Shown here: positions 2,933 through 35,744 of the stretch, one piece after another
How the letters are laid out: every line of letters begins with the position of its first letter
How positions within the stretch are numbered: position 1 is the stretch's first letter
Assembly: GCA_038870635.1 (NCBI GenBank)
Contig: JAVZJR010000003.1
Span: 69,204 to 107,242, forward strand
Direction of reading: 5' to 3'
Length of the DNA stretch: 38,039 bases
Source: Candidatus Bilamarchaeaceae archaeon
Lineage (GTDB): Archaea > Micrarchaeota > Micrarchaeia > Anstonellales > Bilamarchaeaceae
Notes under the pieces: model-generated
The model's input: only the letters and a program-made list of their open reading frames with translations
The model's database searches: none
Told to the model about the DNA's origin: nothing
Made by a program: the position numbers and the translations under genes

Positions 2933-3622
2933 ATGCCCATAAAAGCAATATTGTTTGATTTGGATAATACACTGATAGATTTTTTAACGTTTAAAAAAGA
3001 GAGTGCTAAAGCCGCTGCGAAAGCGATGGTAGCACAAGGACTTCCAGCAAGCGAGATAGAAACTTATAGCAAAATATTCACGGTTTACGATGAAAAAGGT
3101 ATAGAATATCAAAAAACCTTTGCGGATGTTGTTAAGCAATATAATCTTGAAATAAATTTGGCAGAGAAGATACAACAGGCAGCAATAATTGCATATCTAA
3201 AAAAGAAATTTGAAATATTGCGTCCCTACCCTCTAGTAAAATTTACTCTTCAAGCACTTCGTGAGAAAGGTTTTCTTTTAGGTATTGTTACAGATGCGCC
3301 AAGGAATAAAGCATGGCAAAGACTTGTCTTAACTGGGCTTGAAAATGAGTTTGAAGTAGTAATCACAAAAAACGATACAAATGAAGAAAAGCCAGCAGTT
3401 TCTGCTTTTTTGCTTGCAGCAAAAAAATTAGGACTAACTCCCTCTTCTTGTTTGTTTGTTGGTGATAATCCAGCAAAAGATATAAAGGGGGCGAAAGAGG
3501 CAGGTATGATTACTTGTCTTGCAAAATATGGTGTTTGGAATAGAGACAGCGATGTTAAAGCAGATTACGAAATAAATCAGTTTGAGGAATTAATCAAAAT
3601 AATTGAAAAGGTGGAGTCATGA
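2933..3622 (+). CDS. HAD superfamily subfamily IA hydrolase
   Basis: Motif I DLDNTL, motif II VTD, motif III KP, motif IV GDNPAKD. Confidence 0.9.
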   Translation: MPIKAILFDLDNTLIDFLTFKKESAKAAAKAMVAQGLPASEIETYSKIFTVYDEKGIEYQKTFADVVKQYNLEINLAEKIQQAAIIAYLKKKFEILRPYPLVKFTLQALREKGFLLGIVTDAPRNKAWQRLVLTGLENEFEVVITKNDTNEEKPAVSAFLLAAKKLGLTPSSCLFVGDNPAKDIKGAKEAGMITCLAKYGVWNRDSDVKADYEINQFEELIKIIEKVES

Positions 3623-4074
3623 TAGAAGTCGCATTGGAAAAGAGCAGTTATTCACCCGGCGAAGTCATAAATGGAAAGATTATTTTAAACTTTGAAAAAA
3701 AGATAAAAACAAGAGGAATATATGGAACACTGCTTTGCCATGAGAAGAAAAAAATAGTTTCCGTAAGGGAAATGGATTACTACGATTATAATGAGGATAA
3801 AAGCCTGGGTGTCCCACGCTCATCAAACTTAAGAACAACAGTACAATATCGTGATGATATAATCTATAGAGAGGACAAGGTTATCGCACAAGAAGGAACA
3901 TACTTTAAGGAAACATTTCCTTTTAGTTTTTCACTACCAAAAAATGCCGCACCCACAAGCAAAGAGTATGGGCACGACAATAAAATAAATTTTTGGGAAT
4001 TAGAAGTAAAAGTTGACATTCCATTTGCTTTTGATAAAAGAAAAATAATAGAAGTTTTTGTAGAAGGTTTATGA
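3619..4074 (+). CDS. Arrestin-N/SpoOM-like protein
   Basis: LEKSSYSPGEVINGKI...FPFSFSLP..AAPT...WELEVKVDIPFAFD pattern; ATGA overlap with HAD gene. Confidence 0.65.
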   Translation: MIEVALEKSSYSPGEVINGKIILNFEKKIKTRGIYGTLLCHEKKKIVSVREMDYYDYNEDKSLGVPRSSNLRTTVQYRDDIIYREDKVIAQEGTYFKETFPFSFSLPKNAAPTSKEYGHDNKINFWELEVKVDIPFAFDKRKIIEVFVEGL

Positions 4075-4083
4075 GATGATGGG

Positions 4084-5430
4084 ATGGTGGAGATAACTTG
4101 CTATGGAGGTATTAATGAAATAGGAGGTAATAAGTTTTTAGTTGAGAGCAAAAAAACACGCATATTTTTAGATTTTGGCCAATCATTTACTTTGCTTGAT
4201 GAATATTTTGTTCCAGAGGCATATCTTTATCCAAGGGAACGTTTTGGGCTGCGCGACTATTTTGCTTTCGATCTTTTACCTCAACTAAAAGGCCTTTACT
4301 CAAAAGAGGCCATAGAAAGAACTTCTCTTCCATTTTCCCATCCAGAATATGATGGTGTTCTCATCAGCCATGCTCATATAGACCATATTGAGCATCTTAA
4401 ATATCTCCATCCAGAAATACCAATTTATTTAGGCGAGGCAACGAAACTTATAATCGATTCCGCACAGGTTACTTCTTTTAATGGAGTTTCTTACATAAAA
4501 CAGGATACACCTACAATTACTTTTAGGACAGGTAAAGATTTTTCTATAGGTGATTTTAACATTAAACCAATTCATGTAGATCATTCCATACCAGGTGCTT
4601 ATGGCTTTATAATAGAAACCCCTGAAGGAAATATTGTTTATAGTGGAGATTTAAGAAAACACGGTCCTCGTGCTGATATGACCGAAGATTTTTTAAAAAA
4701 AGCAGCAGAGTGTGACCCAATACTATTTATTATAGAAGGAACGCGCGTTGCAGAAAAAGAAAAAAGAAAAAATCATAGCGAGGGTTTTGTGCAACAGGAA
4801 TCTTTACGTATAGCACAAGAGAAAAAAGGACTTATTCTAGCAATGCGTTATCCAAAAGATATCGATAGATTTAGAACTTTTTACAAAGTTGCAAAAGAAA
4901 CAGGAAAAGAATTGGTCATAACACAAAAAACAGCGCATTTGTTATTGTCTTTAAAGAACGACCCAGTTGGTCTTCCTGATCCTTATAATGATAAAACAAT
5001 AAAAATCTACAAACGTGAGAAAAAAGTTTATCAACCTTGGGAAAACCAAATAACTACTAATTGTGTTGATTCAGAATATATATCTAAAAATAAAAACAAC
5101 ATCATTCTCGAACTAGAATTTTCACAGCTTCCAGAACTTATAGATATAAAACCAGATGGAGGTGCCTGTATTCATTCAATGAGCGAGCCTTTTGAGGAAG
5201 ACCCCCTCTCTCAGATTTCAGAAGAAGTTTTGAGAAGATGGGCAAAGAAATTCAATTTAGATTATTATCAACTTCATGCTTCCGGACATGCTTCCATGGG
5301 AGAAATATTTCAGTTTATAGAGCAGGTTAATCCTGAAAGAGTCTTACCTGTACATACAACAGGTGCCCATCTTTTTAAATGCGAAAACGTTCTCTTACCA
5401 CTAAAAGGACAGACTATCTCTCTCGATTGA
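4084..5430 (+). CDS. RNase J-like metallo-beta-lactamase/beta-CASP hydrolase
   Basis: GGINEIGGN, LDFG, SHAHIDH, VDHSIPGA, SGDLRKHG, EGT and HASGH motifs. Confidence 0.85.
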   Translation: MVEITCYGGINEIGGNKFLVESKKTRIFLDFGQSFTLLDEYFVPEAYLYPRERFGLRDYFAFDLLPQLKGLYSKEAIERTSLPFSHPEYDGVLISHAHIDHIEHLKYLHPEIPIYLGEATKLIIDSAQVTSFNGVSYIKQDTPTITFRTGKDFSIGDFNIKPIHVDHSIPGAYGFIIETPEGNIVYSGDLRKHGPRADMTEDFLKKAAECDPILFIIEGTRVAEKEKRKNHSEGFVQQESLRIAQEKKGLILAMRYPKDIDRFRTFYKVAKETGKELVITQKTAHLLLSLKNDPVGLPDPYNDKTIKIYKREKKVYQPWENQITTNCVDSEYISKNKNNIILELEFSQLPELIDIKPDGGACIHSMSEPFEEDPLSQISEEVLRRWAKKFNLDYYQLHASGHASMGEIFQFIEQVNPERVLPVHTTGAHLFKCENVLLPLKGQTISLD

Positions 5431-5436
5431 AGAAGC

Positions 5437-5498
5437 GGTAACTCAACAGCTACTCTTGTCATCACATCTCAGACTGGGACGGTAATTTCATCGTTACC
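5437..5498 (-). ncRNA. C/D box 2'-O-methylation guide sRNA, predicted 23S rRNA targets Gm2251 and Um2438 (E. coli numbering)
   Basis: Minus strand: C box ACGATGA (5494-5488), guide AATTACCGTCCCAGT, D' CTGA (5472-5469), C' GTGATGA (5465-5459), guide CAAGAGTAGCTG, D TTGA (5446-5443), terminal stem GGTAAC/GTTACC. Confidence 0.85.
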
Positions 5499-5560
5499 AA
5501 TTTTATTATGCATAATTTAAAATTAAAACTTATGTTTTTGACGAAATCTGCGAAGAGTAG

Positions 5561-5575
5561 GAGAAGCTTTATATA
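5561..5575 (+). promoter_or_regulatory. BRE/TATA promoter of the small Zn-ribbon gene
   Basis: GAGAAGC followed by TTTATATA (5568-5575), 37 nt before ATG 5612; GGGTG RBS at 5602-5606. Confidence 0.55.
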
Positions 5576-5611
5576 TTTTTTTTAAGAAAAACAAACGGAA
5601 AGGGTGTGTTG

Positions 5612-5734
5612 ATGGAGCTCACTGAGCAAGAAAAAATAAAAAATGGAATCTGTCCTTCCTGTGGTGCTAATCTTGTTTTTCAAGAAGGTTGTATGACTTG
5701 TATGCAGTGCGGTTGGGGCGCTTGCGACGGTTAA
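5612..5734 (+). CDS. 40-aa stand-alone Cys-rich zinc ribbon resembling the class II ribonucleotide reductase (NrdJ) C-terminal tail
   Basis: MELTEQEKIKNGICPSCGANLVFQEGCMTCMQCGWGACDG*; RBS and TATA upstream; in-frame stop at 5558-5560; not in ORF track. Confidence 0.85.
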   Translation: MELTEQEKIKNGICPSCGANLVFQEGCMTCMQCGWGACDG

Positions 5735-6390
5735 TTTTTTACCTCTTGTTGTTTTTCTTTTTGTTCTTCCACTTTTAGCGTTTCTGTTTTTGGTATATTT
5801 GTTTCCGTTATTACTTTCACTACCTCCTCTTCTGACAAGAAAATGTAGTTTGCATTTTTTAATTTTTTATAAAATTTGTATTGATTCTCTAAAGAAGGAG
5901 GAGTTTCAAAGAAATTTCCTATCCCTTCGAACATACCATACCAGCCAGCTGGTACTAATAGTATCTCTACCAATCTTATGAAATAATTTGTACCATCGTA
6001 AAAGGTGCTCAAGTACATCTGAGTGGCGAGTAGCGTAAAACCAACAGCAATGTATACCAATCCCTTCTTTCTCTTTTTTTGTAATTCATACTCTGTGTTT
6101 TTCAATAATTGTGCAAAATAATCCTTTATTCTTTTTTTTATGAGTGCTTCTGTTTTTGGATTTCTTTGGGCATTTGGGATAGTAAATCTAACTTCGAATT
6201 CTCCTTTTTGCCTTTCGCTGTATTTTTTTTGAACTTCTTTTAAAAAATCATCTGAGAGTATTCTTGTTGAATACGGCGAAGGGTCAAAATCTGAAAATAT
6301 ATCGTCATAAGTGTCTAATGCTATGTTGACAAGATTAAGAAAGGTTGCTGGCTTTTTTTCGTCCTCTGCCACCATTTTTTCTATTTCCAT
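5731..6390 (-). CDS. Hypothetical membrane protein (2 TM)
   Basis: 219 aa; acidic LDTYDDIFSDFDP motif, two hydrophobic helices near residues 110-160. Confidence 0.8.
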   Translation of the reverse strand: MEIEKMVAEDEKKPATFLNLVNIALDTYDDIFSDFDPSPYSTRILSDDFLKEVQKKYSERQKGEFEVRFTIPNAQRNPKTEALIKKRIKDYFAQLLKNTEYELQKKRKKGLVYIAVGFTLLATQMYLSTFYDGTNYFIRLVEILLVPAGWYGMFEGIGNFFETPPSLENQYKFYKKLKNANYIFLSEEEVVKVITETNIPKTETLKVEEQKEKQQEVKN

Positions 6391-6417
6391 AAAAAAAATT
6401 GAAACAAAATATTTATA

Positions 6418-7653
6418 TTAAGACCTTATTGGATCTTGACCATCAACACATATGCAATTTTTGCCTGATTTTTTTCCTCTATAAAGTTGGTCGTCTGCTG
6501 CTTTTATCAATCGTTCTATTATCTCGTCATCGATTTTTTCTATATCCCCAACCACTTTTTTTAAGCTTGAAACTCCAAAGGTGCAGCTAACTTTTAGGAT
6601 GCCTCCTATTCCTAAGTCTATTGCAATGTTGTTTATTAAATCTCTGAATCTTTTTGCGCACTGCACTGCACCGTCAAGATTGGTCATAACTAAATGTAAA
6701 AACTCTTCGCCACCCCATCTTGCTAAGAAATCGGGGTAGACATTTCCTCTTTCCTTATCATCTCTTTTTTTTCTCGTACTCTCAAATATCCGTCTACTTA
6801 TTGTTTCTAATACTAAATCCCCTGTAAGATGACCGTAAGTGTCGTTTATTTGCTTAAAATTATCTATGTCAAACATTATCAGGGCGAAATCATCTATTTT
6901 TTTGCTATTGTATAGACTTATAGTTGCTTTTAGTTGTTCATCTATAGCTATTCTCGTTGGTAAGTTAGTTAATGGGTCAAAATTTTCTACTATCCTTGAA
7001 ACACCGCTTGAGAGCGTAGATATGAGGAGCATTGTTTCCCTTATAGCTTCCTCGCCGGAAAGATTGGAACCACGTATAGTGAGATCATTGCCAGTTATGG
7101 TCCAAACACCAAGCTTTCTTGGTTCTGTATAGAAATTTTTAGTATATATTGGTGATATTATTTTTTGATTTTTTATATCGACAGGCAAATCAATATTTTT
7201 TTCAGCTTCGTAATCACCTATTTTTGTGTTGTATATTTTCATCTTTTTTTTATCTATAAATATAAACGCCATTTCATTATCAATAGCCGCAACTTGGGGT
7301 ACGATGAGTGCTTTTTGTTTTAAATCGATAGTTTCATAAATTCTTAGGTCATAATCGCGTTCTTCCGCTACTTTTTCACATTCATTTAAGTTTTGCTTTA
7401 CTGTTATAAAATGAATTAATTTATTTTTTATATAAAAATGCAAAGAAGAACTTTGGGGCTCCTTAAGATGAGAAAGTACCAATTCTAAATAACATTCAAA
7501 ATCTTTGAAGTTTGTATTTTGGGCTCGACAAAGAGAATATATTGTCATTGCATATGCCGGTGATACGAGCACTTCTTCCACTAGAGGCGTATTATTTTTT
7601 TCTTTTTGTGGGATGTTTTTAAGTGGCCCACCATTATTTTTTAAGTTATGCAT
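6418..7653 (-). CDS. GGDEF-domain diguanylate cyclase with N-terminal GAF-like region
   Basis: DPLTNLP, FDIDNFKQINDTYGHLTGD, ARWGGEEF, SCTFGVS and ADDQLYRGKKSGKN motifs. Confidence 0.92.
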   Translation of the reverse strand: MHNLKNNGGPLKNIPQKEKNNTPLVEEVLVSPAYAMTIYSLCRAQNTNFKDFECYLELVLSHLKEPQSSSLHFYIKNKLIHFITVKQNLNECEKVAEERDYDLRIYETIDLKQKALIVPQVAAIDNEMAFIFIDKKKMKIYNTKIGDYEAEKNIDLPVDIKNQKIISPIYTKNFYTEPRKLGVWTITGNDLTIRGSNLSGEEAIRETMLLISTLSSGVSRIVENFDPLTNLPTRIAIDEQLKATISLYNSKKIDDFALIMFDIDNFKQINDTYGHLTGDLVLETISRRIFESTRKKRDDKERGNVYPDFLARWGGEEFLHLVMTNLDGAVQCAKRFRDLINNIAIDLGIGGILKVSCTFGVSSLKKVVGDIEKIDDEIIERLIKAADDQLYRGKKSGKNCICVDGQDPIRS

Positions 7654-7706
7654 AATTTTATATAAATTGAAACAATTTAAAAAACTTCTTGAGGTTTAGA
7701 AATAGA

Positions 7707-7815
7707 CGCCTCGGCCGGGAATTTCGCCAAAACAAATTTGGTTTCGAACCCGGGTCGCGAGAGTGACAGTCTCGTATGCTAGACCATTGTGCGTTTTTCT
7801 CTACACTACCGAGGC
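7707..7815 (-). tRNA. tRNA-Asp(GUC) with two non-canonical introns: 14 nt at 15/16 (7787-7800) and 22 nt at 59/60 (7721-7742)
   Basis: Acceptor GCCTCGG/CCGAGGC, anticodon arm CGAGA-CTGTCAC-TCTCG; removing both inserts restores D loop AGTGGTCTA and T loop TTCGAAT; both junctions form BHB-type motifs. Confidence 0.92.
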
Positions 7816-7840
7816 AGTATTTATTACCATTATTAATTGG

Positions 7841-7856
7841 TTTTTTAATCTTTTCG
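7841..7856 (-). promoter_or_regulatory. BRE/TATA promoter of tRNA-Asp
   Basis: Minus strand CGAAAAG-ATTAAAAAA ending 26 nt upstream of the tRNA 5' end. Confidence 0.55.
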
Positions 7857-7872
7857 TGCGTGGTTTAAATCT

Positions 7873-9393
7873 ATGCGTAAGAAAAACCACACAATAGATT
7901 ACCTCATATTGTTTTTTTTGCTTTTAACCTGTTTAGGTGGTTTTGCAGTTAGCATAACAACACTTTTTATTTTGCCTTACTTTGTAAGCGAGTACTCTGT
8001 AATAAAAAGTTATGACTCCTTAGAGCGAATAGATGGTCTTACTATTGCAACTGCTGATCCACAACCAGATATTATGTATGCATACAACTCACCTGTGGTT
8101 GTGCCTATTGTGATACAAAAGCCGAATATAAAAAATGACCATTTAGTAAAACTCGTAATAAGCGAGAATAACAAGTTAATTAAAGAAATTGAATGCATTC
8201 CAGCAGATTTATCACAAGAAAAAATGATATGTAATGCTTCTTTTCCATATACTTATGCACCAAATTCTAAAATGGAAGTAAGGGCTGTTTTAGAGTTGTT
8301 TGATGGCAAACGATTTGTTAGCAATAAGATTCCACTTACCTATGATTGGGCAAATTATGAGAAAGGTTTCAGAAACATATCAAGCTCGCTTTTAATAATT
8401 ATAATCCTTGGCTTTCTTCTTCTTATTCTACCCCTTAGTGCAATGATGTATCATCTTACTACTTTAGAAAAGCATCACGCAATATATAAGGGTGAGTACA
8501 CTCTACAAAGTCTTCTTCAACCTTTTAGATATGTAAAAACAAAAGAGCAATTTTTTCAAGCTTTTATTTCTTCACCTCTTTTTTGGTTTATTGAATTTAT
8601 AGGAGCATTCCTTCTAATCATATACTATGCGTTATCTGCAGACGTGTTTAAATCTGATACCTCGTTAGTCGCATTTTTAATAAGCGGTGGTTTTGCTTTT
8701 TTTGTGCCTTTTCTTTGGGTTGCGGTTTGGTGGTTAGCGGACTACAAAGAAAGGGAGCCGTTGAGAATAATAATTTCACTTTTTTTATGGGGCGCGTTCT
8801 GTTGTATTATATCTATAGGTATTAATACAATAGCAGAAGCATTTTTTGTAGTGCTTGGTTTAAGTTTGATAAGCTCGATGATCTTTCCTCCTTTGGTTGA
8901 GGAGTTTTTTAAAGGAACAGGACTTGCAATTTTTTCACTTCACCATGACTATTCAAGCATCGGTGATGGTTTAGTATATGGCTTCACTATAGGAATGGGT
9001 TTTGCTTTTATGGAAAACTGGCTCTATCTTTTAGATAATCCAATGGGTGCTGATATTACTATGTGGGCTTCACTTTTTTTCTTGCGTGCAGTGCTGTTTT
9101 CTGCAATGCATGGGGTGTATACAGCTGTAACAGGCGCACTGATAGGTTATCTAAAAACAATTGGCAAGCCACAAATTCTCCTATTCGGTTTTACTCTAAT
9201 CCCTGCAATTTTTTTACATTCTATCCATAATTCAGTAGATATCTTGTCTGCTATTTTTGGTGACATTGGGGTTTTGGCTTATTGTTGTGTTGTTGGACCT
9301 CTTTTTGACTATGGCGGTCTTTTTGTAATAGCTGTTCTTATGTTAGCTTGGTTAAATCTATCGAGCAAAAGCAGAAAAAATAAAAGTATTTAA
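7873..9393 (+). CDS. PrsW-family intramembrane glutamic protease with N-terminal extracytoplasmic domain
   Basis: D..EREP, PPLVEEFFKG, GFAFMEN, H(GVYT) and LHSIHN motifs; many TM helices. Confidence 0.88.
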   Translation: MRKKNHTIDYLILFFLLLTCLGGFAVSITTLFILPYFVSEYSVIKSYDSLERIDGLTIATADPQPDIMYAYNSPVVVPIVIQKPNIKNDHLVKLVISENNKLIKEIECIPADLSQEKMICNASFPYTYAPNSKMEVRAVLELFDGKRFVSNKIPLTYDWANYEKGFRNISSSLLIIIILGFLLLILPLSAMMYHLTTLEKHHAIYKGEYTLQSLLQPFRYVKTKEQFFQAFISSPLFWFIEFIGAFLLIIYYALSADVFKSDTSLVAFLISGGFAFFVPFLWVAVWWLADYKEREPLRIIISLFLWGAFCCIISIGINTIAEAFFVVLGLSLISSMIFPPLVEEFFKGTGLAIFSLHHDYSSIGDGLVYGFTIGMGFAFMENWLYLLDNPMGADITMWASLFFLRAVLFSAMHGVYTAVTGALIGYLKTIGKPQILLFGFTLIPAIFLHSIHNSVDILSAIFGDIGVLAYCCVVGPLFDYGGLFVIAVLMLAWLNLSSKSRKNKSI

Positions 9394-9442
9394 ATGTTAT
9401 TTTTTATAGTAGTTCATAGCAAATTTGTGATAAGGTGATGAG

Positions 9443-9670
9443 ATGATATGCACCCAAAAAACAAAACATTCAGATAAATTAATTTCAGACAAATTTCAAA
9501 GATATAATGAAATAAGAAAAAAAGTGGAATTCGCAGAGAAATTTCTTGAAGCTTTAAAATTAGTTAATAATCTTTATCATAGTCCTAACCAAAATTATGA
9601 CCCACAAAAAAGAGCGTATGCTATTTCTAATTGTAGACGTTTGATGGAAGAATCTCTACAGCTGCAGTAA
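9443..9670 (+). CDS. Small hypothetical protein
   Basis: 75 aa ORF filling the intergenic gap; AAGGTGA RBS; TTTAAA box upstream. Confidence 0.55.
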   Translation: MICTQKTKHSDKLISDKFQRYNEIRKKVEFAEKFLEALKLVNNLYHSPNQNYDPQKRAYAISNCRRLMEESLQLQ

Positions 9671-9675
9671 TATTT

Positions 9676-10854
9676 TTATCTGCAGCATATTGAAATCGCG
9701 ATAGCTGCGATTATGCTTATTCCGGCAGCAATTGAAAGCGGTACAAGCGCTCCGTAAATTGCCCATAATGTACCAGCAATTAGACTTGCAGGCAAGTAAG
9801 CAGCACCTATCGCTGTGCTGTAAGCACCAAACGCTATACCTCTTTTTTCTGGTGGGGCCATATCGCTTATATATGCTTTGTTAACTGATTCGTCTGTGGC
9901 CACAAAAATTCCATAAAGGCCGAAAAGAATAAGCAATGAGAAGAAGTCACCTACAAACGCAAAACCTATACAAATAAGAGCGTATAACGCAAATGCACCT
10001 GCTATCATAGGTTTTCTTCCTATTTTATCTGAAAGCATTCCTGTGGGAATCGCTGCGATAGCGTAAATAATATTATAAAATAGATATAGTAAAAGAATGT
10101 TCTCCGTGCTTATTCCTATTTCATTTGCACGCACTATAAAAAAGGCAAAACTAAAATAAGCTAAAGAAAAGAAGAGCGATATTTTAAGATAAGTGTGATA
10201 TTCCTTGCCAAGTTGTTTTAGTGCGTCCCAAAATTTTACTTTTTCTTTTGGCGTGATGTTCTTTTTTGTTGGCTCGCGCACAAATAATATTATGAGTAAC
10301 ACTGCCAAAAATGCAGGTATAAGTGCGGCTAAAAAAACAGTTCGATATGCACTTTCACCGTTTCCTAATATTCCAAGGAGAAAAAATGCAATAGCTGGTC
10401 CTATTATCGCGCCAACCGTATCCATCATTCTATGCAGGCCATACGCTTTTCCTCTTGCAGTTGTAGAAGATGAAGCCGCGATTATGGCATCGCGAGGAGC
10501 AGTTCTTATTCCCTTTCCCACTCTTTCAAGCGCACGCATAATCAAAACATGCCACCATTGAGTAGAAAGTGCAATACCTAATTTCACAAAAGAGGACATC
10601 CCATAACCTAAAACGACAAGTTGCTTTCTTTTTCCTGTTTTATCAGATACATAACCAGATACTATCTCAAGCCAACTCGCAATACTGTCGGCAATTCCTT
10701 CTATAAGACCCAACACCTCTTTACCCGCACCAAGGATGGTGGTAACAAAAACAGGTATGAGTGGAAATATCATCTCACTTGAAACATCAGTGAGAAAACT
10801 TACTGCACCTAAAATATAAACATCAAGACCTATATCTTTTTTTTCTTCAGTCAT
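9676..10854 (-). CDS. MFS transporter
   Basis: SFLTDVSSEMIFP, GYVSDKTGKRK, GKGIRTAPRDA and GMLSDKIGRK motifs, about 12 TM; ATG 10854 directly after the pyrG stop preferred to 10881. Confidence 0.93.
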   Translation of the reverse strand: MTEEKKDIGLDVYILGAVSFLTDVSSEMIFPLIPVFVTTILGAGKEVLGLIEGIADSIASWLEIVSGYVSDKTGKRKQLVVLGYGMSSFVKLGIALSTQWWHVLIMRALERVGKGIRTAPRDAIIAASSSTTARGKAYGLHRMMDTVGAIIGPAIAFFLLGILGNGESAYRTVFLAALIPAFLAVLLIILFVREPTKKNITPKEKVKFWDALKQLGKEYHTYLKISLFFSLAYFSFAFFIVRANEIGISTENILLLYLFYNIIYAIAAIPTGMLSDKIGRKPMIAGAFALYALICIGFAFVGDFFSLLILFGLYGIFVATDESVNKAYISDMAPPEKRGIAFGAYSTAIGAAYLPASLIAGTLWAIYGALVPLSIAAGISIIAAIAISICCR

Positions 10855-23581: not shown

Positions 23582-24241
23582 ATGAAGTTCTTTATTGATA
23601 GTGCGGATGTTGAGGAGATAAAAAAAGCAGTAGAGCTTGGGATGTGTGACGGCGTCACAACAAATCCAACTTTAATAATGAAGGCGGGGAGAGAGCAAGA
23701 AGAGGTTATCAAAGAGATTGCTAAAATAGTAAAAGGACCGATAAGTGTTGAAGCAATAAGTGATGATGCAGATGGAATGGTAAGAGAAGGTGAAAGATTT
23801 GCAAAATGGGCGCCAAACGTAGTTATAAAAGTTCCAATGACAAAAGAGGGCCTAAAAGCAGTACGTCTTCTTGCAAAGAAAAAAATAAAATGCAATGTCA
23901 CTCTTGTTTTTTCAGCTGCGCAAGCTTTGTTGGCTGCTAAGGCAGGTGCTGCTTTTGTTTCTCCTTTTGTTGGAAGGTTGGATGATATTGGCCAGAATGG
24001 GATGGACCTTATTAGAGATATAATGGATATCTATAAAAATTATCCTTTTAAGACAGAAGTTATAGTTGCATCTGTACGCTCTGTTAAGCATGTTGAAGAA
24101 GCAGCAAAGGCAGGAGCACACATTGCCACAATCCCACCAAGAGTATACGAAGAATTATGGAAGCACGAGCTTACTGATAAAGGCATAGAACTTTTCAAAA
24201 AAGACCACGAGGAGTACTTAAAAAAGATTGGAAGGATTTAG
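23582..24241 (+). CDS. tal: Transaldolase (TalC/FSA-like family)
   Basis: GVTTNPT, Schiff-base Lys in [17 protein letters not shown]; Glu in ISVEA and Phe in SPF match transaldolase rather than FSA. Confidence 0.9.
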
Positions 24242-26652
24242 ATATTTCCATCTTCGCTCTTTTTTGTTTCTTCTGTTATAACTGCAAAACTTGACACTTT
24301 TTCGTCTTCTTCAAGTCGTATTATGCGCACACCTTGGGTGTTTCTTCCAACAAGTGAAATCTCGCTTACTGGTACTCTTATACTTTTTCCTTTTGATCCG
24401 ATTACTATTACTTCGTCTTTTTCTCCAACCGCAGCTATCCCGACAACATCACCATTTCTGCCTTCTGTTTTTATGTTTATCACACCATATCCTCCGCGCC
24501 CTTGAAGACGGTATTCAGAGACCTCTGTTCTTTTTCCATACCCGTTTTCACATATTGTGAGTATGGCCGGCTTTCTGCACGCTGTCGCACCTATAACATA
24601 ATCACTTTCGTTCAACCGTATGCCTATCACGCCTTGTGCTGTTCTTCCTATTTCTCTTGCTTCATTTTCATCAAACTTTATTGCTTGGCCCTTTTTCGTT
24701 CCTATAAATATGTGATCATTTCCATTTGTTTTTATGACATCTATCAGTTGATCGCCTTCTTTCAGCGTTATGGCTATTATTCCTCCTTTTCTTGGTTTAT
24801 TGAAATTTGAAAGCGATGTTCTCTTGACTATACCATTTTTGGTTATCATGAAGAGGTATTCGTTTTCAGCAAAAGACGATACACTTATCCATGCAGTTAC
24901 TTTTTCGTCTTTGAGGTCTAAAAGATTAACAATAGACCGACCGATGGCATATCTGTTTGTTTCTGGTATTTGGTAAACTTTAAGCCAATGCATTCTTCCT
25001 TTATTTGTAAATATCAACAAATAATCGTGTGTTTTTGTTACAATTATGTCCTTCACGAAATCATTTTCATGCGTTTCTGCAGCAATTATTCCTTTCCCTC
25101 CTCTTCCCTGTAATCTATACTCGTTTATATCCACTCTTTTTATGTAGCCGTTGTTTGTAATACTTACCACCACGTCTTTATTTGGTATGAGGGATTCATC
25201 AGTGATTTCTTCGTACACATCAATTATTTCTGTTTTTCTTTCATCGCCATATTTTTCCTTTATCTCTAAGAGTTCCTTCTTTATAATATCTAAAATTTTC
25301 TTTATATCTGAGAGTACTTCTTTTAACCATCTTATCTTTTCCTGTAATTCCTTATACTCATTTTCTATTTTCTCTCTTTCAAGAGAAACTATCTTGGATA
25401 TCTTCATATCTAATATTGCAAGTGCTTGCTTCTCGCTTAATGAGTATGTTGTCATTAACTGGTCTTTTGCCGTTTGCGTATCCTTTGCGCTTTTTAATAG
25501 TGCAACGACGTTGTCTATATTCTCTAATGCAATCCTTAGTCCTTGTAGTATATGCGCGCGGTTTTCTGCTTCTTCCAGCTCAAACAAACAACGTTTTCTA
25601 ACTATCTCTTTTCTGAATTCTACAAATTCTTTTATCATTTCATATAGCGTTAGAAGTTTTGGCTTGTTTTTTACTATGGCCAGCATTATCACGCCCATCG
25701 CTGTTTCTAGTAGTGTATGTGCGTACAATTGATTTAGTACTACTTCTGGAGTAGCATCTCTTTTCAGCTCTATGACAAGTGCAAGGCCTTGTTTGTCTGA
25801 GTGGTCATGTACTCCAGCAATACCTTCGACTTTTTTATTCTTTACAGCCTCAACTATGCTCTCTATGATTGCAGTCTTAGTTATTTGATATGGTATCTCT
25901 GTTATCGTTATTTTTCTTTCTTCTATTTCTGCTTTTGCTCGTATTTTTATAGAACCTTTTCCTGTCTTGAAGTATTCCATTATTCCTTTTTTTCCAATTA
26001 CTGTTGCTCCTGTTGGAAAATCAGGACCTTTTATAAATGATAAAACCTCATCTTCGCTTTTTTCGTCTATTAAAGCTATTGCTGCGTCTATCATTTCGTT
26101 TAGGTTATGGGGCGGTATGTTTGTCGCCATTCCAACTGCTATGCCTGAAGAGCCGTTTATTAGTAAGTTTGGTATTTTGGCAGGTAGTACCACGGGTTCT
26201 TTTACTGTACCGTCGAAATTGTCAATAAAATCAATGGTGTTTTTCTCTATATCAGCGAGCATTTCGTCTGCTATTTTTGCCATCCTTACTTCGGTGTATC
26301 TCATAGCCGCAGCAGCATCACCATCTATGCTACCCATATTTCCATGACCATCTACTAATGGATAACGAAGAGAAAAATCTTGCGCCATTCTTACCAGAGT
26401 ATCATAAATTGCCATGTCACCGTGTGGATGGAATTTACCTAAACAATCACCAACCACTCTTGCGCTTTTCTTATGTGGTTTATCATAAGTGTTGTTTAAT
26501 TGATACATTGTATATAGTATTCTTCTGTGTACTGGTTTAAGACCATCGCGCACATCTGGTATTGCTCTTCCTATTATTACACTCATTGCATAGTCAACAT
26601 AAGATTCTTTCATATCTTCTTCAATTGAACGAGGAATTATGATTTCTACCAT
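24238..26652 (-). CDS. gyrA: DNA gyrase subunit A
   Basis: [15 protein letters not shown], catalytic AAMRYTE and GyrA box QGRGGKG; beta-pinwheel CTD. Confidence 0.98.
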
Positions 26653-26660
26653 AAATTCAC

Positions 26661-28550
26661 CTATATGTCTAAATTCCTTACCTCTACTGCGTGTTTTTCT
26701 ATGAATTCTCTTCTTGGTTCTACTTCTTCACCCATTAGTACCCTAAATATTTCATCAGCAAGCATCGCATCCTTTATTGTTACCTTTTTCAGTGTTCTTC
26801 TTTCAGGGTCCATTGTTGTTTCCCAAAGTTGTTCTGGATTCATCTCACCTAGACCTTTGTATCGTTGTATTTCAGCACCTTTCATATCTTCATTGAGCAT
26901 TTTCTTAAGTTCATCATCACTATAAGCATATCTCACTTCTTTACCTTTCTTTAATTTGTATAGTGGCGGCTGCGCTATATATAGATGACCTGTTTCTATT
27001 ATTGGTCTAAAGTATCTATAAAAGAGTGTAAGCAAAAGCGTTCTTATATGACTACCGTCTACATCTGCATCTGTCATTATTATTATCTTGTTGTATCTTA
27101 ACTTCTTTATGTCAAACTCATCTTTTATACCAGTTCCTAGCGCTATTGCTATTGCCTTTATCTCTTCGTTAGAAAGCGCTTTGTGAAGCGGTGCCTTTTC
27201 CACGTTTAAAATTTTTCCGCGCAATGGAAGTATTGCCTGATATCTTCTGTCTCTTCCTTGTTTTGCCGAACCACCTGCAGAATCACCTTCAACAAAATAC
27301 AATTCTGTTTTTTCCACATCTTTTTCAGTACAATCTGCTAATTTCCCAGGAAGCATGCTTGTTTCGAAAACATTTTTTCTTCTTATCAACTCCTTTGCTT
27401 TCTGTGCAGCTTCTCTTGCTTCCATAGATTTCATAACCTTTGCTGCGATTGCTCTTGCATCGTTTGGATTCTCCTCAAAATGACGCATAATTGTTTCGTA
27501 GACAAAACTATCTACAAGTCCTTTTATTTCGCTGTTGCCTAATTTTGTTTTAGTTTGTCCCTCGAATTGGGGCTCAGGAACTTTTACAGATATTATCGCA
27601 GTTAAGCCTTCAACAACATCTTCGCCTTTTAACTTGCTCTCTCCTTTAAGATATTTTTCCTTTGTGAGATATTCATTAGTTGCTCTGGTTATCGCAGTTT
27701 TATATCCACTTACATGCGTTCCGCCTTCAATTGTGTTTATGTTATTAACAAAAGAGTATATTGTTTCGCTATAACTTTCAGTGTACTGCATTGCGTATTC
27801 CATTTCTATATCGCCTTCTGTTTTTTTCGCATAGATAACTGGATGAAGTTTTGGTTTTGCTCTATTGATATGCTCAACAAACTGCTTTATTCCTCCTTCA
27901 TAATGATAATACTCTCGCTCTCCAACACGTTCATCTGTGAATAGTATGCTTATAGTGGGATTGAGAAACGCCAGTTCCATCAATCTTTCCTTAAGATAAT
28001 CAAAATCAAATTCCACACCGCCAAATATTTTAGGATCTGGTTTAAATCTAACTATGGTACCTCTTTTTTGGGTTTCTCCAACTACTTTAACCTCACAAGT
28101 TGGCTTTCCATACTCATAACTTTGAAAGTATACTTTTCCTCCTCGATGAACTTCAACTTCCATTCTTTCGCTCAATGCATTTACAACAGAAATACCAACA
28201 CCATGCAAGCCACCACTAACCTTGTAGGCTTTTTTCTCGAATTTCCCTCCTGCGTGCAGTATGGTAGTTACAACCTCCAGGGCAGATTTTCCACTTTCGT
28301 GCATTTCTGTAGGTATTCCCCTTCCATCATCTTTTACAGAAGCAGAACCATCTTTATGTATAATCACCTCAATGTTTTTCGCATAACCTGCTAAAGCTTC
28401 ATCTATGCTGTTATCAAGTACTTCAAAAAGCAAGTGATGGAATCCTCTTTTGTTTGTATCACCGATGTACATTGCTGGTCTTTTTCTAACCGCTTCTAAA
28501 CCTTCTAAAATCTGGATATCTTTAGCTGAGTACTCTTCTTCCACCGTCAT
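26661..28550 (-). CDS. gyrB: DNA gyrase subunit B
   Basis: VRKRPAMYIG, EVLDNSIDE, SGGLHGVG, EGDSAGG, PLRGKILN, DADVDG and YKGLGEM motifs. Confidence 0.98.
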   Translation of the reverse strand: MTVEEEYSAKDIQILEGLEAVRKRPAMYIGDTNKRGFHHLLFEVLDNSIDEALAGYAKNIEVIIHKDGSASVKDDGRGIPTEMHESGKSALEVVTTILHAGGKFEKKAYKVSGGLHGVGISVVNALSERMEVEVHRGGKVYFQSYEYGKPTCEVKVVGETQKRGTIVRFKPDPKIFGGVEFDFDYLKERLMELAFLNPTISILFTDERVGEREYYHYEGGIKQFVEHINRAKPKLHPVIYAKKTEGDIEMEYAMQYTESYSETIYSFVNNINTIEGGTHVSGYKTAITRATNEYLTKEKYLKGESKLKGEDVVEGLTAIISVKVPEPQFEGQTKTKLGNSEIKGLVDSFVYETIMRHFEENPNDARAIAAKVMKSMEAREAAQKAKELIRRKNVFETSMLPGKLADCTEKDVEKTELYFVEGDSAGGSAKQGRDRRYQAILPLRGKILNVEKAPLHKALSNEEIKAIAIALGTGIKDEFDIKKLRYNKIIIMTDADVDGSHIRTLLLTLFYRYFRPIIETGHLYIAQPPLYKLKKGKEVRYAYSDDELKKMLNEDMKGAEIQRYKGLGEMNPEQLWETTMDPERRTLKKVTIKDAMLADEIFRVLMGEEVEPRREFIEKHAVEVRNLDI

Positions 28551-34927: not shown

Positions 34928-35731
34928 TTATTTGCGTGGCATCTCTGGCTCTTCTATTTCAGAGGGATAGTATGCAGTAGCTGCTTTTGTTGTTTCTTTC
35001 TTTTTCCTTAGTGCGAGTTCTTTTGCTATGAGTTCCTTAACTACTTTTTCGTGTATGAATCTTCTGCCACCAACTTTATAGTGAGGTATTCTTCCTCTAT
35101 CAAGTCTGCGCTCAAAGGCATTTCTCTTAATATTTATACCGTTTTCGTGAAGTTCTCGAAGCGCTTGCGAAACAGAATAATAATTTTTGCTAACATGAGT
35201 AAGTGCTTCTATCGCCTCAACAGGTATCAATCTTCTTGTACCTATTTTTACTGAAGGAACTGATCCTTTTTCAACACGACCTATAAAAGCACGGAAATTA
35301 ATATCAGGATTAGCTTTTTTGTATTCTTGGAATGCTTCTTTTACAGTATAAAATTCTTCTTTGGTTTCAAGAATGTTATCTAAAACATCTTTGTGTATAT
35401 ACCTTTTTCTACCGATTTTAACAAAAGGAATGGTGTTTCTTTCTATTCTACCACCGAAGGCACGAAATGATAAAAGAAGACCATTGCTGCGAAGATAATC
35501 ATATGCTTCTTTTATAGAATATAGCTTATGTGTTTCACGAAGAGATTTTTCCTCTGTTTTTTGTTTATAAAGTTGTTGTGCTGCTTGGAAAACACTCATC
35601 AACGACGAAGTTAAACTTTTCTCCTCTTCTATTTTTTCTTTTTCTATTTCTTTAACATCAAGGTTTCTAAATCTGTCAATCCACTTATCATTAATCTCAG
35701 TCTCTATAATTATTCTTTTTCCCCGGGGCAT
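34928..35731 (-). CDS. DNA-binding protein with three tandem Xis/BldC-like (HTH_17/MerR-type) domains
   Basis: Three ~57-aa repeats Y[ST][IV]..A...F..R[IVL][ED][RK]..[IV]P..K[IV]G..R.I; ATG 35731 follows a GAAGGTGA RBS (track start 35740 lies inside the RBS). Confidence 0.8.
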   Translation of the reverse strand: MPRGKRIIIETEINDKWIDRFRNLDVKEIEKEKIEEEKSLTSSLMSVFQAAQQLYKQKTEEKSLRETHKLYSIKEAYDYLRSNGLLLSFRAFGGRIERNTIPFVKIGRKRYIHKDVLDNILETKEEFYTVKEAFQEYKKANPDINFRAFIGRVEKGSVPSVKIGTRRLIPVEAIEALTHVSKNYYSVSQALRELHENGINIKRNAFERRLDRGRIPHYKVGGRRFIHEKVVKELIAKELALRKKKETTKAATAYYPSEIEEPEMPRK

Positions 35732-35744
35732 TTTATTCACCTTC

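Follow-up and report, generated by a model that had tools for sequence, protein, structure and literature searches.

A resident GAF-GGDEF gene family of Micrarchaeota, predicted to encode diguanylate cyclases, many with a split I-site

The window (the whole 38,039-nucleotide stretch of a Candidatus Bilamarchaeaceae archaeon contig that was analysed) carries a gene for a 411-aa GAF-GGDEF diguanylate cyclase at 6418..7653 on the minus strand, assigned from its ORF and its Pfam match. The protein was divided into a disordered N-terminal tail (aa 1–23, 7585..7653, minus), recognised by pLDDT <50 and composition, a divergent GAF-fold domain (aa 25–225, 6979..7581, minus), delimited on the predicted model and without a Pfam match, and a GGDEF catalytic domain (aa 224–399, 6457..6984, minus; Pfam E 4e-32). 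The cyclase scored 111.6 bits against PF00990 (cut-off 23.8) and 112.5 bits against TIGR00254 (cut-off 37.4), its GGDEF fold was backed by Foldseek matches of the AlphaFold model, and it is the sole GGDEF protein of the genome of the window, G000 (859 kb, 8 contigs, 89.55% complete, 0 contamination, about 900 proteins).

In the AlphaFold model, the GAF domain (pLDDT 88.8) is closed by a long helix (aa 200–223), which runs into the DPLT turn. Structural comparison of the N-terminal domain produced a list dominated by GAF domains, with the best match to 3trc (Z 14.6, rmsd 3.6 Å, 147 residues aligned), Foldseek with the same domain returned a GAF match at E 1.5e-4, and the top structural match of the whole model was the GAF-GGDEF cyclase Dcsbis (4zmu). 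Pfam GAF profiles matched the N-terminal part of the cyclase with 0 families, and matched 1 of 20 family members, at E 0.2. Judged by the predicted model, the domain is a GAF fold that is divergent in sequence, and the GAF-like pattern noticed in the preliminary description is thereby borne out at the level of fold, though Pfam is blind to it. The invariant GAF residues P168, G182, and G188 look structural. Since a hydrophobic stretch above threshold was present in only 1 of 78 family proteins, the cyclase was taken to be soluble.

Motif mapping of the catalytic domain located the DPLT turn (D226, T229), R234, DIDNFK (D262, D264, K267), N270–D271, GH..GD, and RWGGEEF (R312–F318; GGEEF at 6700–6714, minus), so that each of the catalytic motifs listed in the preliminary description is present in the ORF. 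The guanine-selecting Asp is D279 (6817–6819, minus), equated with PleD D344 by motif mapping of the numbering, and R234, after the DxLT turn, corresponds to the cross-dimer Arg. These two residues mark strict c-di-GMP producers according to the available text of PMC9140294, and the earlier assignment to the c-di-GMP type rather than the Hypr type, made on the retained Asp, holds with the cross-dimer Arg in addition. The cyclase is judged likely to make c-di-GMP.

Across 91 family domains, the metal-binding and catalytic residues were near-invariant (D262 in 89, K267 in 87, N270 in 91, R312 in 89, G315 in 89, E317 in 89), and the full canonical residue set was found in 64 of the 89 domains with a full core. 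The guanine-selecting position was Asn in 18/91 family domains and Ser in 1/91, versus Asp in 112/112 of the bacterial set, which argues that specificity is drifting in the family. Asn-type members include P0125, P0136, P0143, P0148, and 14 more; a contiguous RxxD accompanies Asn in 13/18, against 15/70 of the other family domains, and the Asn-type members with a contiguous RxxD probably form one subclade.

The I-site of the cyclase is split, with R294 and D308 lying on either side of an 11-residue charged insertion (6730..6774, minus; sequence comparison). The contiguous RxxD five residues before GGEEF is missing, with VYPD in its place, as the preliminary description had recorded; the Arg and Asp themselves are both kept. 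R294 sits 15 residues past D279, a spacing shared with 95/112 bacterial domains, and D308 is at the canonical place, four residues before the active-site Arg. An insertion of at least 3 residues at this site was found in 54 of 82 parsed family domains versus 1/112 bacterial domains, and both I-site residues were retained in 49 of the 54 insertion-bearing members. Since R294 and D308 stand at their canonical places around the insertion, the absence of product feedback proposed earlier cannot be deduced from the sequence and is not supported, and the two residues may also serve structural roles.

Upstream of the gene, a putative archaeal TATA-like box of the leaderless type (7676..7684, minus) ends 22 nt before the ATG; this region is recognisably retained in the orthologue of genome G001, similar boxes lie upstream of the family members inspected, and a sigma-70 promoter scan gave results at or below chance. 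Beyond the box lies a tRNA-Asp(GTC) (7707–7815, minus) with two non-canonical inserts, in the D-loop and T-loop regions, which ARAGORN missed as it stands and called after two in-silico deletions, and which holds the only Asp(GTC) anticodon arm of G000. The neighbours include the archaeal DNA polymerase II small subunit and an archaeal-type ThrRS, consistent with the earlier placement of the cyclase between an archaeal intron-containing tRNA and archaeal-looking genes. The tRNA-Asp is a neighbour that stands outside the cyclase system, and its candidacy as an integration site was rejected because it is not adjacent to the cyclase in G001.

On the other side, at 5731..6390 (minus), lies a gene, included on the basis of synteny, for a conserved hypothetical protein of 219 aa whose C-terminal part is hydrophobic and which has no Pfam or NCBIfam match over cut-off and is named 'hypothetical protein' in the Atlas. 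Its family is widespread in bacteria and Micrarchaeota, and a paralogue is present at G000:C3:9208-9822. The gene was considered as a dedicated, co-distributed receptor and rejected, as it occurs in 39/61 close genomes, many of them without GGDEF, and is missing from several GGDEF-bearing ones. An identical 12-mer (approx. 6396–6407 and 7664–7675, minus; the only two copies in the genome) stands between TATA-like box and start of both the 219-aa gene and the cyclase; in G001 the 219-aa gene lacks it upstream, and it was treated as chance. Elsewhere in the window, a probable archaeal C/D box sRNA with C, D′, C′, and D-like boxes (5437–5501, minus) lies just past an RNase J-like gene, its matches to SNORD31 (E 0.019) and sR44 (E 0.19) both falling below the Rfam gathering score. 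Further observations were a very small zinc-finger-like ORF (about 40 aa) in which CxxC occurs twice (5612–5734, plus), a 151-aa arrestin-N-like protein (3619–4074, plus), tandem bacterial-type DNA gyrase genes (24238–28550, minus), with gyrA confirmed and its neighbour resembling gyrB, and a 270-aa protein with repeated HTH_17 (excisionase-like) domains (34928–35740, minus).

To authenticate the locus, window positions 3500–10500 were compared with contigs from four runs, which belong to three studies. Run X4, from an independent study, gave one contig over 6203–8829 that bridges both gene ends, with 33 differences and 1 gap; runs X3 and X6 cover the stretch in pieces, and the possible source run covers it in one piece. 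Among the listed runs carrying the stretch, all were hot-spring metagenomes and none was an RNA run. Codon usage of the cyclase is typical of the genome (GC3 0.265, 50th percentile; CAI 54th percentile; 547 genes). Comparison with the G001 orthologue gave pN 0.28 and pS 0.86 (synonymous sites saturated) in both domains, and the orthologues are under purifying selection; at 55% identity, against 62–93% for the six neighbours compared, the cyclase evolves faster than its surroundings. Among the listed matches, six were full-length homologues at 56–72% identity, and the remainder mainly covered the GGDEF part.

The gene is almost certainly genuine and resident. An assembly chimera, or a recent bacterial import without a role, might be suggested by the tRNA that the gene adjoins and by short contigs in relatives' bins that carry GGDEF-EAL genes of bacterial appearance (L002, L005); the X4 contig spanning the gene, the full-length homologues followed by a drop to GGDEF-only matches, the genome-typical codon usage, and the separation of tRNA-Asp and cyclase in G001 make this scarcely credible. 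Both artefacts had been raised in the preliminary description: a chimera is not borne out, and a single recent transfer lacking homologues is contradicted by the homologues and by the family described below.

A profile of 20 N-terminal domains was searched against 1.84 billion proteins clustered at 50% identity, and found 93 clusters. A GGDEF domain was present in 91 of 99 sequences (clusters plus close homologues), most of the other 8 being short or apparently truncated. When 30 family clusters were looked up, 5 bore an organism name, in each case (5/5) Micrarchaeota/Micrarchaeia. The GAF profile matched 30 of 301 Micrarchaeota genomes, namely G000, 25/64 others in the host family, 3/4 in f18, 1/14 in f9, and none in the rest, a count that favours the host family, from which the profile was mostly built. 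GGDEF domains were found in 7/7 genomes of the genus, G000 included, in 37/61 close genomes, and, over the Pfam cut-off, in 113/301 genomes of the phylum (38%; 129 at E 0.001), the phylum counts being profile scores, with catalytic state and contig origin established for few. Bacterial-looking GGDEF genes in four relatives' bins (L002, L003, L005, L032) are probably contamination and slightly inflate the raw counts. In two genomes of the family, GGDEF is fused N-terminally to a domain with a CxxxCxxC motif (L007:1-1659, L014:1426-3453), which we take to be of the radical-SAM type.

Synteny was compared over 20 family loci of uneven length. The cyclase lies near triosephosphate isomerase (TIM) in 7/20, near the 219-aa gene in 6/20, and near both in two; a tRNA-Ser-like gene stands beside it in 6/20 and tRNA-Thr in 4/20, and in three genomes of the genus the cyclase is at another site. 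The TIM and 219-aa neighbours are shared across genera, and such sharing points to inheritance from a common ancestor inside the family, followed by rearrangements. The outgroup of the GGDEF tree consisted of 80 non-archaeal loci whose similarity lay mainly in the GGDEF domain. The tree of 87 rows was weak: the 19 rows of the family required 6 changes, most of them falling into two groups made up wholly of Micrarchaeota, and a bacterial sister of the family had no support. In a reduced tree, from which 50 rows had been taken out (long branches, near-duplicates, further GGDEFs of Micrarchaeota, and 23 bacteria), 15 family rows stand on one side versus 22 bacteria with support 84.

The N-terminal tails of the family are basic and Arg/Pro-rich relative to their own bodies: over the first 30 residues, 78 family proteins averaged a net charge of +3.4 over the body, and by the same measure housekeeping neighbours (n = 39) gave +0.1 and bacterial cyclases (n = 110) −0.1. 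Restriction to TATA-anchored starts gave +3.9 for the family (n = 13), +4.3 for HD-GYP-like proteins (n = 8), and +0.3 for conserved neighbours (n = 26), a difference with p about 0.004 in statistics whose members include kin that are not independent. HD-GYP-like proteins of other Micrarchaeota (L053–L063) likewise open with basic, Arg-rich tails. The tail of the window's own cyclase has no Arg and is weakly basic (+1.2). Genes lacking a homologue in G000 were basic in a cruder set (+3.5, n = 19) and not significantly so with anchored starts (n = 10, p 0.17). The basic tails give a compositional hint toward export.

Partners of the signal were sought by profile searches in G000 and its relatives. 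The preliminary description reported no EAL, HD-GYP, or PilZ partner in the window, and this extends to the whole of G000, with EAL and HD-GYP controls positive; MshEN, ComFB, a degenerate GGDEF paralogue, and a diadenylate cyclase (DAC) were likewise not found in G000. EAL and HD-GYP were found in 0/7 genomes of the genus, PilZ in 1/61 and MshEN in 0/61 close genomes, and EAL over cut-off in 2/301 phylum genomes, both as bacterial-looking GGDEF-EAL genes on short contigs. Searches for the c-di-GMP-I riboswitch and bacterial STING gave no match, the positive controls being silent too. The earlier scenario of a transfer with neither homologues nor effectors in relatives thus divides, since homologues exist and known effectors are essentially missing. 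HD_5 was found in 14/61 close genomes and in 0/7 of the genus, and 2 of 11 HD_5 proteins inspected have the full HHE..DG.GYP motif, so some relatives may own a phosphodiesterase. An NrnA-like DHH-DHHA1 protein is encoded at G000:C4:45651-46604; NrnA-like DHH-DHHA1 enzymes can cleave pGpG and some cyclic dinucleotides. As the gene lies in an exosome gene cluster and scores far below the NrnA cut-off, the protein may be a plain nanoRNase. Two secretion/pilus-type ATPases and a pair of family-2 glycosyltransferases are encoded in G000 as well and are, by analogy, possible c-di-GMP outputs.

The explanation to which we give about an even chance is that of a long-resident, cytoplasmic, dimeric cyclase under GAF control, whose c-di-GMP is sensed by an unrecognised receptor of the same cell; that the enzyme acts in its own cell is judged probable. 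If it works as PleD-, WspR-, and Dcsbis-type enzymes do, the GAF domains would dimerise, a small ligand or a partner would move the linker helix, and the two GGDEF domains would be brought together so that 2 GTP are condensed to c-di-GMP. Feedback by the product may persist via the split R294/D308, with the insertion looping out or tuning the site. The c-di-GMP would most likely be read inside the archaeon by a receptor outside the known families and removed by a non-canonical nuclease, for which the DHH-DHHA1 protein is the candidate, and the likeliest output, by analogy, would be a surface or attachment change; cyclases are described as enriched in attached ultra-small cells in the available text of PMC9938205. 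Against this explanation stand the absence from G000 of a receptor of the families searched (PilZ, MshEN, ComFB, degenerate GGDEF), the lack of EAL and HD-GYP in the genus, the poor fit of the DHH-DHHA1 candidate to NrnA, the patchiness of the family (25/64 host-family genomes), the evolution of the gene at a faster rate than the six neighbours compared, and the low share of cloned MAG proteins in PMC13725321 that were consistently active (2/11).

The missing phosphodiesterase and known-family receptors in G000 would also fit an active site kept for another use, whether very low activity or local activity on a bound partner, GTP sensing, a scaffold, or a different dinucleotide. The Asn and Ser substitutions at the specificity position, against a uniform bacterial Asp, and the catalysis-independent phenotypes reported in the accessible part of PMC13725321 favour such a use; it is nonetheless unlikely for the window copy, which keeps both D279 and R234, the marks of a strict c-di-GMP producer in PMC9140294 as far as its text was available, within a family whose metal-binding and catalytic residues hardly vary. 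The same shortage of readers, set against the number of synthases (GGDEF 113/301, EAL 2/301, PilZ 1/61, MshEN 0/61), could mean that either the enzyme or what it makes is passed to a receptor-bearing host or neighbouring cell, making that cell stick or stop swimming. Here the basic, disordered tails would act as an export label, the two secretion/pilus-type ATPases of G000 might play a part, and the rapid divergence of the cyclase would fit. The weak charge of the window's own tail and the anchored-start genes without a G000 homologue, which are not significantly basic, tell against it, as do the putative hosts of Micrarchaeota, which are Thermoplasmatales and Sulfolobales in the consulted text of PMC12892359, with Sulfolobus being without detected c-di-GMP in that of PMC10249747; we consider it quite unlikely.

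In a bolder version, Micrarchaeota would deliver GAF-GGDEF cyclases, and in other lineages HD-GYP-like proteins, by means of the basic, disordered N-terminal tag into a bacterial partner or prey that becomes sessile, and the Asn subgroup may make another dinucleotide. This is very unlikely; if true, an outward-facing use would explain 113 cyclase-bearing genomes versus 2 with EAL, and the hosts of an archaeal symbiont would then have to be bacteria. The patchy distribution of the cyclase, its rapid evolution, and the missing off-switch could further be read as an antiviral or stress alarm, in which c-di-GMP made upon infection triggers a toxic effector of the STING type. The neighbourhoods inspected consist largely of housekeeping genes and tRNAs, no effector gene travels with the cyclase, and the recurring membrane-protein neighbour is present in many GGDEF-less genomes, which leaves this alarm highly improbable. 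With a single cyclase among about 900 proteins, the 859-kb genome is a small space in which a first archaeal c-di-GMP receptor might be found, or the signal revealed as meant for another cell. How GGDEF regulation and specificity can drift may be approached through simple biochemistry on the split I-site and on the Asp-to-Asn subgroup.

Archaeal diguanylate cyclases have already been reported in print, and the find is less surprising than the preliminary description held. Its premise that c-di-GMP signalling is largely absent from archaea is out of date, as archaeal, including DPANN, cyclase activity is reported in the available text of Sidorov et al. 2026 (PMC13725321). That text describes 20 GGDEF proteins from archaeal MAGs, mainly DPANN, of which 11 were cloned and 2/11 were consistently active in all three assays, in bacterial hosts; it calls the occurrence sporadic, gives no systematic survey, and leaves prevalence, receptors, phosphodiesterases, and origin open. 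Added here for one phylum is a common, inherited synthase with EAL, PilZ, and MshEN nearly absent, and a count of 113/301 Micrarchaeota genomes over the Pfam cut-off differs from 'sporadic' as worded in that text. Several proteins in the accessible part of PMC13725321 (KHO53915.1, RJQ22058.1, KYK22704.1; MBI5036943.1) resemble the window's in their intact GGDEF, their retained specificity Asp, and their verified archaeal context, and GAF-GGDEF layouts are listed there. Only one Micrarchaeota sequence is named in its supplement text, with an HPSGDEF motif that is aberrant and, on visual inspection, without a GAF domain, and the split I-site, the Asp-to-Asn subgroup, and the basic tails are features of the present family that were not met in the text available; the figures or uncloned proteins of that paper could include a member of the GAF-GGDEF family.

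In other partly available sources, c-di-GMP is stated not to have been detected in archaea (PMC10249747), cyclases are described as enriched in attached ultra-small cells (PMC9938205), the terms GGDEF and di-GMP never occur in the main text of PMC12892359, and the regulator of Ca. Micrarchaeum acidiphilum (PMC5847659), also a GGDEF protein of Micrarchaeota, differs in being catalytically dead and REC-coupled. A search of titles and abstract beginnings outside subscription journals found no description of the GAF-GGDEF family in print. With the bacterial enzymes Dcsbis (P. aeruginosa, 4zmu), DgcZ, PleD, and WspR, the window's cyclase shares domain order, linker helix, DxLT turn, and active site; unlike bacterial GAF-GGDEF proteins, it has a GAF domain that is 6–15% identical to solved GAFs and unrecognisable to Pfam, carries an insertion inside RxxD, and is encoded in a genome, G000, in which no cognate EAL, HD-GYP, PilZ, or MshEN was found. 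The Hypr cGAMP synthases (GacA/GSU1658, Bd0367) have the same fold, and the substitutions seen in the family fall at the same specificity position; in those synthases Ser or Thr replaces the specificity Asp, whereas the window's cyclase keeps both D279 and the cross-dimer Arg and is therefore not of the Hypr type.
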